DNA of 41,054 bases from Catajapyx aquilonaris (taxonomy: Eukaryota): NCBI GenBank assembly GCA_000934665.2, contig KZ538906.1, forward strand, positions 1-41,054, in the 5' to 3' direction. The translations under genes were made by a program, and so were the position numbers. Within the stretch, counting starts at the first letter, position 1; each line of letters begins with the position of its first letter. The notes beneath the pieces were generated by a model. That model worked only from the letters and a program-made list of their open reading frames with translations, was not told the origin of the DNA and searched no databases. Positions 4,255 through 38,126 of this stretch are shown one piece after another.

Positions 4255-5852
4255 CTTCGTAGCTTTATCGTAGAGCGTGGTAAAAAACTTTGGTAAAAAG
4301 GCAGAGGAATTGTATGTGTGCTCTTCTCTCCTGAGACCGTGATCTGAATGGAACAGGGAACAGCACCAGCGTTGCCAACCTCGCGGGAGAGCAGGATTGC
4401 CAACCTGACGCCTACAAACTACCGTACCACTAGAATTACCATATTTCGCCTGAATTTACCGCACATTTAAAAACATGACATTTTTTAAAATAAACACTAG
4501 GGGAAATATTAGTAGATGCCCGTGAAAATGTCGTGTAAAATGTGTTCCTTACACGTCCCCTGAAATATTTTCTGGCAATTTCTGCAACTGACTTGTCTAC
4601 TGTATTCACACGCGCTCCCGCGGGAACTATTCGGGGCAAAAATAACTAAAGTTCGCTTCGAAACGCGCCTGCCGCATTTTTGCTACTGCCCCGCCTTAAT
4701 TGGGGATGATGTACCGAGTAATGATGGTTGTGGGGATATTAATAGTAAGAAGGAAGTTGCAGCTGCTATTTCAGAACTATATATTATGCAAATACCATGG
4801 GGTTGATGCACGGGTTGATGCCATTTCTTCGGAAATGGCGAGGTGTGGCGGTGATGATGTAGTTACTCGTATTTATTTGGCTATTATATATAGGGTTTCT
4901 TTTGAGAATGGTGTAGTTCCTAGGGATAGGAGGGATGCTATTATAGTACCTCTGTAGAAGGGTAAGGGAGATGTGTGTGACTGCGAGAATTATCGTGGCA
5001 TTAGTTTGTTGAGTGTACCAGGAAAAGTGTATGTAAAGGTTCTGATAGAAAGAGTTAAGAGGGTCGCACGTCAGAGAATACTGAATATTCAGAGTGGGTT
5101 TATGTCGGGTAAGAGTTGTGTAGATCAAATATTCTGTATGAGACTCGTGATAGAAAAGTATTTAGCTGTAAACTAAAAGGTTTATTATGTTGCCTTTGAA
5201 GACCAAGAGCTAGACTTAGAGAAAGCATATGACACAGTAAGCAGGGATGGTTGTGGGAAGTTCTGAGTCTCTATGGAGTGAAGGGCCGCCTGCTGGAGGC
5301 TGTAAAGTCATTGTATGAAGAGTACGTCGAGCTTGTGTTAGAACTATAGTGGGGGTTTCTCTGACTGGTTTAACATTAGTGTTGGGGTTAAGCAGGGTTG
5401 TGTCATGTCTCCCTGGTTATTTAACTTGTACTTAGATGCATGTGTAAGGGAAGCAATGATTGAAGGTGTAGGAGTACATTTTGGTGACGAGATACTAAGT
5501 TGTTAGTCACTTGCTGTATGGAAATGATTCTGCCCTTCTGGCGGAGAGTGAGGTTACAGTTTATCCTATGCTCATTAGACAATGATGTTTGTGAGAATAA
5601 GGGCATGCAGATTAACGCAGATAAGACTAAGGTATTGGTATTTGAGAAAGGACAGCAGGTTTCTCCTTGTATGCTGCAGGAACGAGGAAAACCTGTTGGG
5701 CAGGTGAATCTGTTTGTATACCTGGGTAGTGTCCTTGAGAGTAATGGTAGAATGGATGGGGAGATAGACAGGAGAGTTCGTTCGGGGTTGAAAGTGATAG
5801 GTGCCACAAGTAAGTTTTCTAGAAACAAGGACATCTTATTCTGCCTATAGGT

Positions 5853-6294
5853 CAGGGGTATTCAACTAGTTTATGACAAGGTCCAGTATTTACCTTTCCT
5901 GGGCCATTGAAGGTCCGCCCNNNNNNCCCCCCCCCCCGGGTACAGATATGGATTTTATATGGTACAACAGGGTTCATTTTTGAAAATAGAAACATGTGCA
6001 GCAAGGGTAGAAGGGCTTATTAAGACATTTTCGCCCTTTATGAAGTCCTGTACAGGCGCGTAGGCAGATTTCTTTTTCGGAGGGGCGCCGAACAAGCCGT
6101 AAAGGACAGAGAGCCAGCCACCCGCAGACGAAATTTTTTGTACGGGTTCAAGGAGATTTGAAGCACTTTTTCCATAAAATCATGAATCAGTAATTTCTAA
6201 TGCTATTTCAAACTGTCATGTATATTGTCGCGGTCCAGACAAAATTGCGTCGCGGTCCGGATGCGGACCGCGGTCCGCCAGTTGAATAGATCTG
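5853..6294. mobile_element. Non-autonomous hAT element inserted in the RTE
   Basis: Imperfect TIR CAGGGGTATTCAACT / AGTTGAATAGATCTG; perfect 8-bp TSD CTATAGGT (5845-5852, 6295-6302); GC-rich subterminal palindrome cgcggtccggatgcggaccgcg. Confidence 0.88.
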
Positions 6295-6852
6295 CTATAG
6301 GTTGTCTGTCTATTCTCACGTTAGTGTTCCTTCACTTATGTATGGTAGGCCTAGTGAAGTGTGGGTTTGGTCAGATAGGCATAAGAGTAGGGTGTTGGCT
6401 ACAGAGATGCGTTATCTCCGGGCTGCTTGTGGGGTTACCAAGTTCGATAGGATTAGGAATGAGGAGATTTTGGAGAGGTGTAATGCTAAGGAGACTGTTA
6501 AAGATAAGGTGTGTAGGTCTACTCTAAGGTGGTTTGGCCATGTGGAGAGGATGAAGGAGGAGGAGATTGTGAAGAAGGTTTATTTGGGTGTAGTAGTTGG
6601 TAAGAGGGGCAAGGGTAGGCCTAGGAAGACATGGTTGGACCAGGTGGGTCAGTGTCTTAAGGGTGTTGCTAGTGTTAAGCCGAGACGTTCTTGTGTCAAT
6701 AGGACCATGGACGTGGCTGAGGCTAGGGTTGTTTCTTTAGACAGGTGTAAATGGCGTAGGTTGATTAATGGGGGTGAGTAATAGCTAGAGGAGGAGGGAG
6801 GTACACAGGGAGGGGGTAGTTTATAGTTTTATTTTGACAAGTTTTAATTGAA

Positions 6853-7095
6853 GGGTGGACAATGCGAAGGTCCTAAGTGCCAAAAAATCCGGATTTGAGT
6901 TATGAGTGTCAAGGTATCCTATGTGTCATCGCCAATGTTGGGTAGAAGTCACAAGTGCCAGAAAAATCAGTAAGGTTCTGCATTTGGCCAGTAGATGGGG
7001 AGGTTGCCCATTTTGTTTTGTTTTGTTGAGGAGACAGAAACGTGCATAACTCAAAGTCAGGGTTTTGGCACTTAGGACCTTTGCATTGTCTACCC
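6853..7095. mobile_element. MITE with ~30-bp TIRs in the RTE 3' region
   Basis: gggtggacaatgcgaaggtcctaagtgccaaaa versus ttttggcacttaggacctttgcattgtctaccc; flanks TGAA/TTAA (possibly a mutated TTAA TSD). Superfamily uncertain. Confidence 0.7.
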
Positions 7096-13674: not shown

Positions 13675-14104
13675 TATATGTAAAAGTGAACTAGGTTTTT
13701 GTGTCGTTTTAGTTGTTGGCCGTACTCCCTGACAGAAAAAGAACCCAGAAGGGGCAACACACCCAATTAATAAAAACCCCTCCTGAAAATAATTCATATT
13801 GCTTATATGCCACATCTCTAACCTTTACTACTTGTGATTTGGTGGGTGGGGGAAAACTCAGTGCCCAGGAACAACTCAAGACAGACTGAACACTCAGCCT
13901 TCTCAACAATGGCAACTGTTTATGTTGAGTTTAGTATACATTTCTAAGGCCAGTGAGGCCTAATACCTGGGATCCTACCTCATTACTAGGTTGGTCCCTC
14001 AACATTTCTCCTCTCTTCTTTCCCCCNNNNNNNNNNNNNNNNNCCCCCCCGCCCCCCACGTTTTTGACTTGTTTCGGGCCAAGGAACTGCCATTGGACCT
14101 ACTA

Positions 14105-21780: not shown

Positions 21781-21794
21781 TTATGTCTAATATA

Positions 21795-22721
21795 CGAGGA
21801 GTGATCAAAAAGTAAGGTCTCCAAGGCTGTAACCTTTATTCTGTATGAACACAAATGACGAAACTTACAGGGTACATGAGGACAATGGACATCTACTTTA
21901 CTACATAGTTTCCACACCGAAGAACGCACTTATCCCATCACCAGACCAGTTTCTCAATCCCTTCCGAATAGAAAGGGGTGCCCTGTTGACAGCACCAGTC
22001 ACGCAGCCTTCTTCACCTCATCGTCGCTTCGGAAATGCTGACCTGCCATGTCTGCTTTCAGGGCTCTGAATAAGTGATAGTCTGTGAGGGCTAGGTCGGG
22101 ACTACAGGGTGTGTGAGGAAGAACTTCCCAGTCGTATCCATTCAGCAAAGCCATGGTGTCCCTCGATGTGTCCGGACGGGCGTTGTCGTGGAGAAGGATG
22201 ACCCCAGATGTGAGCAATCCTGGAAGTTGCGACTATCAATTCGGAGCGCAGTGACACTGGCGAAGTTGCAGAAGGCCATCAGGTGGAAACGACCAGGATT
22301 GCTCACTGCTGGGGTCATCCTTCTCCACGACAACACCCATCCGGACACATCGAGGGACACCATGGCTTTGCTGAATGGATACGACTGGGAAGTTCTTCCT
22401 CACACACCCTGTAGTCCCGACCTAGCCCTCACAGACTATCACTTATTCAGAGCCCTGAAAGCAGACATGGCAGGTCAGCATTTCCGAAGCGACGATGAGG
22501 TGAAGAAGGCTGCGTGACTGGTGCTGTCAACAGGGCACCCCTTTCTATTCGGAAGGGATTGAGAAACTGGTCTGGCGATGGGATAAGTGCGTTCTTCGGT
22601 GTGGAAACTATGTAGTAAAGTAGATGTCCATTGTCCTCATGTACCCTGTAAGTTTCGTCATTTGTGTTCATACAGAATAAAGGTTACAGCCTTGGAGACC
22701 TTACTTTTTGATCACTCCTCG
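21795..22721. mobile_element. Fold-back mariner (DD34D) derivative made of two inverted 3' halves
   Basis: TA TSD; 429-bp arms (21795-22223, 22293-22721) with a 69-bp spacer. Each arm encodes LLHDN..PHTPCSPDLALTDYHLF (34 residues between the Asps) and ends in the CGAGGAGTGATCAAAAAGTAAG TIR. Confidence 0.95.
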
Positions 22722-22839
22722 TATTTAAGGCATTGCAACATAAGAATCTAACAGCCTAAAATGTCAAGATTTTAAAAATACAGGGCGAAGGGAAACGCGC
22801 GGATAATCGCCAGGTAGACTGATAGTACTCGTAAAACTA

Positions 22840-22844
<5 letters not shown>

Positions 22845-22894
<50 letters not shown>

Positions 22895-23847: not shown

Positions 23848-23912
<65 letters not shown>
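23610..23912 (+). mobile_element. 5'-truncated SINE, family B, with long (ATT)n tail
   Basis: Near-identical to 7277-7525. Confidence 0.85.
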
Positions 23913-23913
<1 letters not shown>

Positions 23914-24238
23914 GTTAATTATTATTGTCATTATTTTGGTCAATATTTTATAACTATAATTTTTTTTCTCATTTCTTATTGACAATATGTTAAGAAAATG
24001 CAACAGGAACTGACATTGTGTTACAAACTTTTTCATGGATCTCAGGAGGATATAAGGCCTGTGTATTTGGATATAGGAAACCTTGGTTTTAGGACACTGA
24101 TTTCTGCTGTCCCTTGAAGTCTCTCATATCAGGAGTTGACTGTACTATAATGCCACCTTGTTGATAATGAATGTAGTTATGCTGCATTTGCACACCATTT
24201 TTGTGGCAATGTTGTACTCACTGAGTTCATTGTTTCAG

Positions 24239-24802
24239 GACCTATGCAAAAATGCAGATCAGGTGTTGTTTGACTCGGCTGAGCCAAACATGAGGATTCA
24301 GTTTTATGCCTCCTTGCATGAAGCCCTCTCAGAATGCACAACTGACTCGTCAATAACCTGGAAGGTTATCGCACTGCTGGAGGCTGCCATTCAACATGAT
24401 GCTGCACTGACGTCAAAACTGTATGATACTCGCTTGATACCATCACTTGGTAACATATTACAAGAAGACCTAGAGGTGGAGAAGGCAACACGTATCCTTT
24501 GCCTTCTGACCCACATGACTGGGAATATGATCGTGGAGTGGCGTCATGTTTGGGTGTCCTCCTTGATGGAGACCCTACTGAGCCTGTACTTGCTGAAGGA
24601 CGAAATATCCGAGGAGCAGCATGACCTGGCTGTTGCTATTTTATTCAACTTCTGCTGTGGGAATAATGTTGCAGGTTATGAATTGATCCGCATTATTGGT
24701 GGAAAGGCAAAAGTAACTCTGCTAGAGAACCTCACAGAATCGGGACGGAGAGATGTGGAAGTGGAGGTCAGGTCAAACATGTTGGCCCTTGCCATTGAGG
24801 AG
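24239..24802 (+). CDS. CIP2A: CIP2A-like protein, coding exon 2 (armadillo-like helical repeats)
   Basis: tgtttcAG acceptor, GAG|GTATGC donor, 564 nt, phase 0-0. AVAILFNFCCGN resembles CIP2A CLGLLANLCRHN as recalled. Confidence 0.85.
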
Positions 24803-26960: not shown

Positions 26961-27046
26961 TAGGGTGGGGTGATTGCAGATTTTTTTTTTTTTTTTTTTT
27001 TNNNNNNNNNNNNNNNNNNNNNNNNNNNNNNNNNNNNNNNNNNNNN

Positions 27047-27516: not shown

Positions 27517-28012
27517 GTTTACCTTGACAAGAAAGATCACTTGGAGCAAGTAGAGGCATTTATACCAAACTTGACCGTTGGAGCATCTCTGGCAGTAGAT
27601 TCGGGAAATGCTAGTTTACTGAACCACATAGTCAAGTTCACAACACAGCTGGAAGCAGATATGTTCAGCAAGCTTTGTGGTTCCGCCTTCCAGAATCTTA
27701 CTGAGAAGATTCATTCTGGCACCAACCCCCAAGTCGCTTCATGTATATTTCAGTTACTGGGCCTGCATACGACAGGCATTAAGCAAAAGTTTGTATCAAC
27801 AGCCAGGGCACTCATTGGTTGGATTGGGCATGCATTGGTTGGAGAACATGCATGCTTGGCACTTGTGCAAATTATCATCAACCGGGGTATGGATGAGTGT
27901 GAAGGGTTTGTGGAAGTGGTGAAGGATATTGTCACAAAGTTAATGGAGCAGCAGCCAGAGATGAGCCCACCAAAATGCAAGTTGCTCAGTGCCCAGATCA
28001 AACTCATCGAAG
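27517..28012 (+). CDS. CIP2A: CIP2A-like protein, coding exon 3 (ends at the U12 donor)
   Basis: tttttgtgcAG acceptor, phase 0; ALIGWIGHALVGEHACLAL resembles CIP2A [21 protein letters not shown] as recalled; ends GAA G|ATATCCTTT. Confidence 0.85.
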
Positions 28013-28219
28013 ATATCCTTTGGCATATTATTTTACTAACATTTCAAACATCACTTAGAACATGATACCATACTATTTGCAGTAATATAAGGTTCCGTCA
28101 AATGCAAGGTATTATTCAAGGTGGTGGGAAAGTTTCTTGTGGTGGTTTTAAAAATATAAATGCAGAATTGTGGACACATTGACATAGTGATGAATGGAAT
28201 AATGAAAATAGCTCTAGCC

Positions 28220-29392
28220 CAGGGGTTCCCAACCCTAGGGTTGCAACCCAAAATAGAGTCGCCAACCCAAACTAGGGTCGCCAACATGTTTTAACCATTT
28301 GTCTCCTGTGCGATTCTGAACTCTTCGGGTGGGGGTTTAAAAAGAGCGCCCTAGGTAAAAATCACTGGATTTGGCACCATTGGTTTCACTCTTGATTCAT
28401 ATACAAGAGAGGGCTGAACATTGCGAGACATACCAACCTACGCTGCATATCGAGAGAGGGCAGCAATGGCCTCATAAACTATGCACAAGACGGTGACGTC
28501 ATCCTATTACGTCATCTACGCGGTTTTTCAAAGGTGGGTTCTACCCCTCTAATAAATCCAAGATAATTCTATATGGTTGCCCAGTCTCTCTGATGAATTA
28601 TGAAAACATCAGTGTCAGTTTTAAACAATTTAAAAGGTCCGATTTAAATGGAGGTAATGTGTTCTGCCGGTTGTAAAAAAAAAAAGCCGGCTCAAGCATC
28701 AAGCGGACAACGCCCAGAGCTCGGAGCAGTCCGCCCGGCCAATTAGGTGCGAGGATGCTTTTTACGACCAAAATGGTGCTGGGTGAGATTGCCTACCCTT
28801 CACGGATCGTTCTGATTTTTTACTCGGCGAAAAGTAAGTTGCAGAATTTCGAGATTGTTAAAAATTGTTTTCAGCTAGACGTCCACATACTGGGAAGTAA
28901 GTGACAGGGAGCTATCTCTATTTAAATTTGTGCAGTAAGTGTTCGTTTAGGGTTGTTTACAATGAATGAAACCTTTGGGTTTTGACGTCGTGCCATTAAA
29001 AATATCACTTGAGTGGTGTAAATACTCATGAACATAGAAACTGTGAGCATTTCCTAAGGCTATGGTGAAAGAAACTTCCATCAGGGTTATACCAGTGAAT
29101 TTTAAAAAGTTATTTTGTTTGGTTGTATTATAATACAGCGAAATCGGGCCGCAGGAGACAGGGTTAAGGGTCACGGGAAGACCGGAAAAAAGGATTAGAT
29201 ATTTTAAGAAGAGAAGAAAAAAATTAGGCAAAGAAGGAAAATTTTGGAAGGAAATTAATCTCTAATCTACATAAGCATTGCACTGTACCTAGTTGAAGGT
29301 TTTGGTAATAAAATGGGAAGAGTCATACGGGTCGCCAGGTCGAGAAAAGGTGGTAGATAAGGGTGGCAATGAAAAAAGGTTGGGAACCACTA
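28220..29392. mobile_element. Non-autonomous hAT element
   Basis: TIR CAGGGGTTCCCAACC / GGTTGGGAACCACTA; perfect 8-bp TSD CTCTAGCC (28212-28219, 29393-29400); gggtcgcc subterminal motifs. Confidence 0.88.
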
Positions 29393-29446
29393 CTCTAGCC
29401 TGATAGTGTCAAAAATGCTGCATTCTAAAGTCAGGCTGAAGGTTAA

Positions 29447-30021
29447 CCCTCCAACGGTGATGTGGGCACTTTTTGTGACCATGCCACTATTTTCGCTATA
29501 ACATTGACAATCTACCACATATGAGCTTCATCTTTTAGGAAATCTTAGTTTGATTCCTTTTGTGATTAATGGCATTTAGTTTTAATTTTTAGAGTAAATT
29601 AGTACGATCAGGAAGAAAATAATTATGTACCGATGCATAGTTGGGGCCAAGACTGCATTCCATCACTTCCTGCTTTACAGAGGGAGGACCTGAGCTTATC
29701 AGTACTGGAAAGCATAGTGATTCATGAAGCCAGCTCTGGTTTTGGGCTTTCAAAAGGAAACCTGTTCGGCCTAGGTGACACACGCACATTATGGCCACAA
29801 ATACGCATCAGTGCATAATTGATTTTTTAACGATCTTACTATCTACTAAAAAATTATAAACTAAATGCCAATCATCACAGAAAGAATCAACCCAAGATTG
29901 TTTCCAAGATGAAGTCCAAATGTGCTATATTTCCCAAGTTATAACAAAAAATGTGACTTGGTCACAAAAAGTGCCCACGTCACTGGAGGAAGAACTTCTT
30001 TCACATGTCACTGTTGCAGGG
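29447..30021. mobile_element. piggyBac-like MITE
   Basis: TTAA|CCCT ... AGGG|TTAA; long imperfect inverted arms (gtgggcactttttgtgacca / tggtcacaaaaagtgcccac). Confidence 0.8.
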
Positions 30022-30623
30022 TTAAGTGGACGGGAGTGTACTGCATTTGCACCACATTGGTGCTTCATGTATGGGCTAAAGAGCCTTCTCCACTATGATG
30101 AGCCATGACTGCACAAAAAATTTGCAACTTTTGCTTATGTGATAGTACCAAGAGGTTTAAGGAAGTCCTCAATATCAGGGTGTTACAAGTATATTTGTAC
30201 TTTTAGTTATATGAAATTTTGCTTGAAGCTGTTATTTTTTTGTAGCTTGTTGCACCCCTAACCAGGTGGCCTATTCTATTGAAACCTCCTATATTCGACC
30301 ACCTGGGAGTAATGGGGCTTCTGGATCAGGGTGAAACAAGCTACACAAAAATACCTATTTTGGGCGATATTAGTGATAGCTAAAAACAATCCGCGAACTT
30401 GGAACACTTATCTCTTGGAAACTAGGAACTTGGATATTTAATTCATTAAAAATAGGATTTTGAGAAATGATACAGTTCTGCTGCAAACCCTATGTAATGC
30501 AAATGCTGCCCAACTGTGTTGGCAAGTGATGTCCTTTTACTAACTTGGTGCAATAATTCTCATCTGGATGTGTGAAGTGTGTACAAACTAGTGCAGTGAT
30601 GATCTTTAACCCAGGTTCTCCAC

Positions 30624-30948
30624 TGCTCTGCAGCATTTCCGCGATTAGTGAACTTATCTTGGACGTAATGAAAACGGAATTCTTCACCTCCATCCTTGAA
30701 CCCTTATTAGCTGCTGCGGAAGGTGGGGGAAAGGTCTTCGATGATTTAGACCTGCCACAGTGCTCAAGTGTTGTGGTGGAGTCCTTGTCCCTGCTGTCCA
30801 TTTTGGCTTGCCAAGGAGCCGATTGGTTTGATGTCTATTCCGATGTCTCAGGCCATGTAGGAGTATCAAAGTACATGGCAGATGCCCTGGTGTCTGGAGA
30901 TGTAGATGTGAAGCAGAAGGTGCTGGATCTGGCAGGAAATACAGAGAG
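30624..30948 (+). CDS. CIP2A: CIP2A-like protein, coding exon 4
   Basis: Starts after the AC acceptor (phase 1); MADALVSGDVDVKQKVL resembles CIP2A LAFALTSDNREQVQSGL as recalled; donor AG|GTACAG, phase 2. Confidence 0.85.
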
Positions 30949-31951: not shown

Positions 31952-32355
31952 CAGGGTGTTTCTTACTAGTAGGTCAACCCGAACTCAGCGTATTCCTTGG
32001 GCCAAAACAAGTCAAAAATGTGTGTGTGTGTGNNGGGGGGGGGGGGGGGGGGGGTGAGAGAGAGAAATACCAAGGGACCAACCTTTAATGAGCTGTAGAT
32101 AACCAGAAATATTGGCCAGTCATTCCCTAAGGAGCAGGATATGAGCAGTTAGCATTTGTGAGATCACCTCTTTCACAGAAGAGAAATGATCACTGCTCAT
32201 ATCCTGCTCCTTAGGCAACCATTGGCCATTTTTTCTGCTCATCTACTTCATTAAAGGTATTTCTCATTGGCATTTCTTCCCCCTTGGATTTTCAACTTGT
32301 TTTGGTCCCAGGAATACACTGACTTCAGGTTGACCTACTAGTAAGAACCACCCTG
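31952..32355. mobile_element. Palindromic Tc1/mariner-type MITE
   Basis: TA|CAGGGTGTTTCTTACTAGTAGGTCAACC ... GGTTGACCTACTAGTAAGAACCACCCTG|TA. Confidence 0.88.
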
Positions 32356-33365: not shown

Positions 33366-33377
33366 ATGATAATAATG

Positions 33378-33419
<42 letters not shown>

Positions 33420-34412: not shown

Positions 34413-34470
<58 letters not shown>

Positions 34471-35381: not shown

Positions 35382-35727
35382 CAAGCATCGTTTGGCATCA
35401 GCCCTCCTTGAGCAGTCGTCAAACAACCTATTCCAGCCGAAGGGAAACAACAGCAACTGTTACACCAGCCCCCTTCCAGAGAAGACCAACAATAATTTTT
35501 CCCCTCAGTCTATTCTAAGTGAAACCCAATGGAAGAGGGTGAGGAGTCTGATTAAAATACTGGAAAGGACAGACCCCAAGACCTGGAAGTCCTCTTCCAT
35601 CACAGAATTGTATGAGTGCAAAATCATGATCCTTGACGACAAGCTTCAGGTATCAAAGGATATGCTGGAGAGGGAGCAGAAGCTCACCGCCCACCAACAG
35701 TCCCTGATTGGTCACTTAGAAGCTGAG
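35382..35727 (+). CDS. CIP2A: CIP2A-like protein, coding exon 5
   Basis: tttgtAG acceptor, phase 2; SITELYECKIMILDDK..KDMLE resembles CIP2A SDIMDVYEMKLSTLASK..QDLLE as recalled; donor GAG|GTATTG. Confidence 0.85.
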
Positions 35728-35799
35728 GTATTGTTTTTTGTCTAATATTTTCCTAGTAATGCAGTGTGAGTGTTCTTTTTTAAAATGCCTTAATTGCAG

Positions 35800-36082
35800 T
35801 CAGTAACCCTTAGGCGCATGTTGTCAGACAAGCATGTGGTGAATGAGGGCTTGGAGAGCATGAAAAAGGGTTTGCAGCAGACCCAAAAACACCTGGAAGC
35901 AGAACTCAGTGCCGAGAAAAGGGCATCCAGTGAGCTGGAGAGAGCCTTGGTTGAAGCCGACGAGAAAATAATTGAGACTCTGAAAACAAAAGCTCAGGAA
36001 ATAAAGGAGATTAAGGTGCAGGCAGAGAAAAGGATACGGACCTTAGAACTTGCTATGGAGGAAGAACGAGCAAAGGCTTTAG
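35800..36082 (+). CDS. CIP2A: CIP2A-like protein, coding exon 6 (coiled coil)
   Basis: Follows a 72-bp intron, ttgcAG acceptor, phase 0; E/K/L-rich heptads; donor G|GTCAGT, phase 1. Confidence 0.85.

Positions 36083-38067: not shown

Positions 38068-38126
<59 letters not shown>
37735..38126 (+). mobile_element. tRNA-derived SINE, family B, with (ATT)n tail
   Basis: Family B head and body; flanked by the direct repeat ttactaacagtg. Confidence 0.85.

Follow-up and report, generated by a model that had tools for sequence, protein, structure and literature searches.

A stretch of 41,054 nucleotides (nt) of Catajapyx aquilonaris DNA (contig KZ538906.1 of assembly GCA_000934665.2, positions 1 to 41,054 of the forward strand; "the window" below means the whole of it) raises the question of how a coding exon that ends at position 28012 is joined to the one that starts at 30624. 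A sequence-only reading of the window had proposed that the 2.6 kb in between are an AT-AC intron of the minor spliceosome in a gene similar to CIP2A. Our answer is that positions 28013-30623 are very likely a U12-type AT-AC intron of phase 1, which splits a valine codon in the armadillo-repeat part of an invertebrate gene of the CIP2A family. We prefer the U12-type AT-AC intron because the splice signals, the reading frame, the AT-AC introns of orthologs and a spliced join in a relative all point to it. The features that carry the argument are the following, where a slash marks an exon-intron border here and throughout.

27517..28012, forward strand: coding exon 3, ending at the AT-AC donor; 165 codons and 1 base, with a gap-free profile alignment across the junction
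28013..28021, forward strand: U12-type 5' splice site ATATCCTTT; all nine positions of RTATCCTTT matched
28013..30623, forward strand: putative U12-type AT-AC intron; 2611 nt, phase 1, 40% G+C
30603..30610, forward strand: branch-site motif TCTTTAAC; differs from the core of the TTCCTTRAY consensus at one position
30622..30623, forward strand: terminal AC of the intron; reads ...CCAC/TG
30624..30948, forward strand: downstream coding exon 4; starts with TG, completing the V codon, and ends in phase 2

Exon 3 ends with ...ATC GAA G at 28012, and its final G opens a GTG (V) codon that is continued by TG CTC TGC at the start of exon 4. If the frame of exon 3 is read on past 28012, it meets a TGA at 28063. 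GT is absent from 28012 to 28082, and the closest one upstream begins at 27989. The AT termini lie at 28013-28014 and the AC termini at 30622-30623. Between the branch motif TCTTTAAC and the end of the intron there are 13 nt (30611-30623), the last three of which are CAC; as measured from the second A of the motif (30609), the intron ends at a distance of 14 nt. Joining 28012 to 30624 keeps the frame, meets no stop and gives ...SAQIKLIE-V-LCSISAISE..., with the V codon split as G/TG, that is, in phase 1; the predicted spliced sequence across this junction is ...ATCGAAG/TGCTCTGC.... Among the AC or AG ends in frame with the 28012 donor, the AC at 30623 is the only one that adjoins the branch motif. 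What the sequence-only reading had said of the placement of the motifs, the CAC end, the 2.6 kb spacing and the frame is all borne out by the sequence, and its coordinates are exact.

In the literature, which is cited here and below from excerpts of the papers, the consensus is given as RTATCCTTT for the donor and TTCCTTRAY for the branch site, with the Cip2a donor as a perfect match (PMC8848931). Compared with the U12-type AT-AC class, the intron in the window is alike in its donor, its branch motif, the short distance from the branch to the 3' splice site and the AT-AC termini, and it shows no departure in sequence. According to the established pairing rules of the minor spliceosome, the U11 small nuclear ribonucleoprotein (snRNP) would pair with the ATATCCTTT donor, while the U12 snRNP would pair with TCTTTAAC. 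The branch adenosine would attack the donor, and the AC 14 nt downstream would be chosen as the 3' site by its distance, so that 28012 would be joined to 30624.

The motifs by themselves are not rare. RTATCCTT is found seven times in the window, both strands together, the motif frequencies are 8.5e-5 and 5.6e-4 per position, and with a loose branch pattern 46 combinations of donor, branch and terminus (within 20 kb) can be formed in the window. One U12 look-alike, formed by GTATCCTTT at 24492 and TCCTTGAT at 24560 (68 nt apart; 24492-24567), lies inside the conserved open exon 2, and we have rejected it as a product of chance. It is the placement, rather than the motifs, that exceeds chance: the donor stands exactly at the end of a coding exon, and the sole in-frame AC end adjoining a branch motif is the one at 30623. 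By a rough estimate, which is our own arithmetic from the frequencies in the window, three signals at fixed positions would be expected by chance at about 1e-7 to 1e-8. The placement is beyond chance also because the AT-AC introns of the orthologs, described below, share both the codon and the phase.

We have then to ask which other splice pairs could join the two exons. There are 172 frame-keeping and stop-free GT-AG, GC-AG or AT-AC pairs in all near exons 3 and 4. Within this set, five AC ends keep the frame with the 28012 donor, only that at 30623 adjoining the branch motif, and the GT-AG alternatives drop 8 to 36 codons. The sole alternative of the same length is the GC-AG pair 28022/30634, whose donor is poor and whose acceptor is good. 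Here the major spliceosome would remove 28023-30633 from the donor TTG/GCATAT to the acceptor ...ctctgcag/C, the product would read ...KLIEDILC-ISAIS..., and ATATCCTTT and TCTTTAAC would be coincidental. Such an intron keeps the frame and leaves a product of equal length, and its acceptor ttctccactgctctgcag, which ends at 30633, 10 nt downstream of the AC end, is pyrimidine-rich and has the look of a good site of the major type. On the other hand, its GC donor, apart from the G at -1, agrees poorly with the usual pattern of major donors. Moreover, the intron would be shifted three codons downstream and fall in phase 2, while in the orthologs it is of phase 1 and immediately precedes the conserved L. 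The GC-AG reading would also leave unexplained why the U12 donor is perfect and why a branch motif is present with an AC end at the correct spacing. Overall, we consider the GC-AG intron very unlikely. The family-profile score is highest for the AT-AC product (82.6 bits), with 78.5-82.0 bits for seven alternatives and 80.2 bits, just 2.4 lower, for the GC-AG form. Since the scores of these isoforms are nearly equal, the protein alone does not decide between them.

Several of these observations weigh against the AT-AC intron, namely the commonness of chance combinations, the existence of a GC-AG pair of the same length, the good major-type acceptor so close to the AC end and the slight separation of the profile scores. 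To them should be added that the branch motif TCTTTAAC departs from the consensus at one position, that the window has no match in Rfam (gathering thresholds), and that we infer the use of the 28012^30624 junction, as well as the presence of the minor small nuclear RNAs (snRNAs) in C. aquilonaris, from genomic sequence.

The case for the AT-AC intron is decided by comparison with relatives. The reading frame of exon 3 gave no match to longer homologous proteins at E ≤ 0.001. A search of protein representatives with exon 4 gave 11 matches, of which five are short true relatives, two are long proteins that on inspection proved to be bacterial repeat proteins matched by composition, and four are other long multi-stretch matches. 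With a profile of exon 4 and the short relatives, we have found proteins of Daphnia carinata (P0014) and D. sinensis (P0013) together with the metagenome proteins P0012 and P0015-P0018, and the scan of a metagenome collection gave three loci, one intron-free and resembling complementary DNA (L001) and two genomic with short introns (L002 and L003). The closest detectable relatives of the gene are branchiopod crustaceans, with about 26-30% identity to the exons of the window.

On the AT-AC product, the family profile is aligned gap-free across the junction, beginning 33 residues ahead of it, and the split V of the window is aligned with the K that is split in the family motif LQILQ-K-LYK. At exactly this K codon both genomic loci have an intron of phase 1 which reads A/ATATCCTTT...TTCCTTAAC...CAC/AG (L002, 1242-1326, 85 nt; L003, 1237-1333, 97 nt). 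The three other introns inspected in L002 are GT-AG, and the one after ...GFSSD is identical in position and phase to the window intron after exon 4. In the intron-free locus, nt 981-1007 read ...CTACAAA/AGCTTTAC..., which are the exon ends of L002 joined exactly at the AT-AC sites, and no intron is present there at any of the L002 intron positions examined. This join is transcript-like evidence for AT-AC splicing in a relative. The claim of a U12-type AT-AC intron made from the window alone is upheld by the signals, by two introns at the same codon and phase and by a spliced join.

The introns of the two genomic loci are alike to that of the window in the codon (V here, K there), phase 1, the ATATCCTTT donor, the CAC end, and the position and phase of the next intron downstream. 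They differ in being 85 and 97 nt long, with a perfect TTCCTTAAC at 20-21 nt from the end, while in the window the intron has 2611 nt and a motif with one mismatch at 14 nt. An inverted repeat is found inside the AT-AC intron of the window (29450-29599 and 29841-29990), with 150-nt arms that are 76% complementary and 241 nt apart, and it has the look of a miniature inverted-repeat transposable element. The intron is longer here than in the cladoceran contigs partly because of this repeat.

The behaviour of gene prediction at the junction gives further evidence. Among 26 further fragments of the family, nine reach the end of exon 3, and all nine read through the donor as LQIL[QK]-NIL-[L/F/Y], which is the translation of A/ATATCCTTT; the other 17 are from other exons or end at an earlier intron. 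All five uninterrupted proteins read LQILQK[L/I]YK. Compared with P0014 (832 residues), P0013 (804 residues) is short of exactly the 28 residues leading up to the junction and continues at LYK, and the P0014 record carries the flag LOW QUALITY PROTEIN. From its form, the gap in P0013 would be the expected output of a predictor that allows only GT-AG introns, and in both records annotation has probably failed on the non-GT-AG intron. The sequence-only reading had expected such predictors to err on this gene, and P0013 provides one example.

The same protein model is what speaks for another explanation, in which the major spliceosome would use a cryptic GT donor upstream together with an AG acceptor and remove part of exon 3, e.g., 27988/GTGCCC with 30615 or 27905/GTTTGT with 30634. 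Several such pairs keep the frame, and P0013 is a solution of this kind. However, these forms lose 8 to 36 residues that are aligned in the family (...C[KR]xL...IxxL...), and with them the profile alignment does not reach beyond the junction on its upstream side. The cryptic GT donors are weak, and P0013 is the odd one out, since the other five proteins spanning the region are uninterrupted. A cryptic GT donor is therefore extremely unlikely in our opinion.

The AT-AC intron lies among ordinary introns of a gene of which two further parts can be located in the window.

24239..24802, forward strand: upstream coding exon 2; 188 codons, phase 0 at both ends, matched in tblastn by residues 35-181 of P0014
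35473..36063, forward strand: probable later exons of the linker and coiled-coil part; colinear weak profile matches, individually non-significant

The family profile A2 matches exon 2 at E 2.4e-13 (profile positions 33-181) and exon 4 at 1.7e-12, and tblastn of P0014 against the window gives E 1.2e-11 and 3e-8, respectively. In exon 4, the tblastn matches of both P0014 and P0016 begin exactly at 30626. Exon 2 is bordered by the acceptor ttgtttcag/G and the donor GAG/GTATGC, an ordinary GT-AG pair, exon 3 has the acceptor tttgtgcag/G, and exon 4 has the donor GAG AG/GTACAG. With these sites, the introns on either side of the AT-AC intron are ordinary GT-AG introns. Farther downstream, profile positions 537-594 (E 1.4) and 703-767 (E 5.8) are matched weakly within 35473..36063, where tblastn matches are weak too, and coiled-coil-like frames, colinear but weak, are seen at about 35.4-36.1 kb and at 39.8 kb. 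The C-terminal motif of the family was not found in the window, and the gene probably extends beyond its end.

These exons bear on a further explanation, by which the gene would be a decaying or unexpressed copy, or minor splicing would have been lost in the lineage, so that the motifs are unused relics. A precedent is given by two copepods, which have been reported to lack most of the minor snRNAs as well as conserved minor introns (PMC10639083). Against such relics stand three well-supported exons with open frames, in colinear order with the family, a donor intact at all 9 of its 9 positions, and neighbouring introns with normal GT-AG sites. Taken together, we regard unused relics as highly improbable, and a U12-type AT-AC intron is the reading that we retain.

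The second question is whether the gene belongs to the CIP2A family. The window exons alone give little indication. Exon 2 folded alone gives a predicted local distance difference test (pLDDT) score of 68 and generic armadillo matches (top Z 12.0), with 5UFL not among the 50 matches listed, and an Atlas search with exon 2 gives generic armadillo clusters only. In sequence searches of the PDB, exons 3 and 4 had 0 matches and exon 2 matched designed armadillo proteins only. The Daphnia-type relatives give a clearer signal. In P0014 and P0016 an armadillo domain comes first, and a long coiled coil makes up the C-terminal part. The predicted AlphaFold model of P0017 (pLDDT 76) matches the CIP2A core 5ufl_B in Foldseek with a TMq of 0.69, the others among the matches listed reaching at most 0.52. 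In VIA-align, 5ufl_B comes first for the same model with Z 24.2 and a root-mean-square deviation (rmsd) of 5.1 over 399 aligned residues, and the next best has Z 20.5 and rmsd 10. In the Atlas, the three clusters nearest to P0014 bear the name CIP2A (the first and third of arthropods, the second of chordates); they have 222-228 features in common with it and score 0.98 each, and the next family is at 0.91. In addition, 14 of 32 homolog matches, all 14 being fragments of the N-terminal exon, carry a precomputed PF21044.5 (CIP2A_N) label.

Direct comparison by sequence gives a weaker picture. The N-terminal exon profile (A5) finds 5ufl_A (Protein CIP2A) in the PDB at an E value of only 0.13, although colinearly (positions 6-162 against chain residues 45-203), and the PDB searches with profiles A1, A2 and A6 did not find CIP2A. 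A fresh hmmscan (E ≤ 10) of four fragments with the PF21044.5 label did not list PF21044, and that of the window exons and nine family proteins gave neither PF21044 nor any CIP2A family. For the labels (P0019-P0042), two copies of Pfam or two thresholds seem to differ. Overall, we consider it likely, with good but not full confidence, that the Daphnia-type family are CIP2A orthologs, and the window gene would belong to CIP2A through its homology to that family. The CIP2A-like nature of the gene is in this way supported by an indirect route: the exons of the window match proteins of the Daphnia type, and this family is CIP2A-like by its predicted fold, by the Atlas and by the PF21044.5 labels.

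If the gene is CIP2A, its intron can be compared with that of vertebrates. CIP2A and Cip2a are minor-intron genes in human and mouse, with the 5' splice site TAAATATCCTTT in both, the branch sites TGTATCTTAACC in mouse and TATATCTTAACA in human, and lengths of 1202 nt in mouse Cip2a and 1516 nt in human CIP2A (Olthof et al. 2019, PMC6717393). In Table S6 of another study, both CIP2A introns are classed as 'minor' and respond in some datasets of minor-spliceosome defects (PMC11347168). The mouse Cip2a minor intron is of phase 1, and its retention after loss of U11 has been validated (PMC12956336). The catalogued introns in MIDB are chr3:108566639-108568154 in ENST00000295746 for human and chr16:49005848-49007049 for mouse. 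The statement, in the sequence-only reading, that human KIAA1524 (CIP2A) is a minor-intron gene is correct (PMC6717393, PMC11347168). For invertebrates, we have found no description of a minor intron in CIP2A in the literature searched, outside which stand the supplements of PMC12956336 that may hold ortholog data.

The vertebrate intron is alike to that of the window in having an AT-type donor with the identical 9-mer ATATCCTTT and a branch motif of the ...TCTTAAC kind, and it is also alike in its phase 1 (mouse) and in its host protein, which has armadillo repeats and a coiled coil. It differs in the three exon bases before the donor (AAG here, TAA in human and mouse) and in length (2611, 1516 and 1202 nt in the window, human and mouse, respectively), and the similarity of the proteins, with E 0.13 at best, is below the reach of sequence search.

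Judged from these comparisons of sequence, the intron is old, since the AT-AC intron of the cladoceran-type orthologs shares its codon and phase, and that of vertebrate CIP2A is AT-type, of phase 1 and has the same 9-mer. The ancestor of Pancrustacea has been reported to show a pronounced loss of minor introns, with an apparently complete loss in two copepods (PMC10639083). CIP2A may have a single ancestral bilaterian minor intron, with its codon, phase and ATATCCTTT kept from vertebrates to crustacean-type lineages and surviving the pancrustacean loss, a proposal to which we give slightly less than an even chance. Of the earlier suggestion of an ancestral intron, the part that reaches to cladoceran-like crustaceans has held, and the vertebrates are consistent with it, by the donor 9-mer and the phase 1 of the mouse intron.

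Some other observations have been made in the window. Immediately before the gene there is a large, nearly perfect inverted repeat (21783-22233 and 22283-22733), with 451-nt arms that are 97% complementary and 49 nt apart, which has the look of an element of the foldback type or of an artefact of assembly. The window also has five long (TAA)n/(TAT)n arrays (22838-22894, 23848-23935, 33369-33419, 34413-34470 and 38068-38126), several of which adjoin dispersed repeat copies, direct or inverted, that recur through the introns of the gene; the arrays and copies together suggest an interspersed element family whose members have trinucleotide tails. Small assembly gaps are marked by short runs of N, which sum to 71 bases (5921-5926, 14027-14043, 19035, 27002-27046 and 32033-32034), and that at 27002-27046 is in the intron that precedes exon 3. 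At about 5000-7000, the window has a strong G-over-C skew of 0.33-0.37, and one frame near 5200-5240 reads ...LDLEKAYDTV..., which we take to resemble the reverse-transcriptase motif of retrotransposons without long terminal repeats. On the minus strand at 4781-5158, P0014 gives a weak tblastn match (E 0.038) that is probably due to chance.

The intron belongs to a known class, and the general knowledge of minor introns is unchanged by it, so that a specialist will not be surprised. For annotation, its meaning is practical: an AT-AC intron flags a gene that GT-AG-only annotation will mispredict, and metagenome gene callers read through its donor. For the lineage, the intact signals would imply that a working minor spliceosome has been retained. 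For evolution, the locus gives a deep point of comparison, made up of Catajapyx aquilonaris, the cladocerans and probably the vertebrates, for one catalogued minor-intron gene, the minor intron of which responds in human cells and mouse tissue to defects of the minor spliceosome. If the proposal of a single ancestral intron is true, this would speak for selection keeping CIP2A, a gene of proliferation and the germline, under the control of the minor spliceosome, rather than for the intron having survived neutrally.

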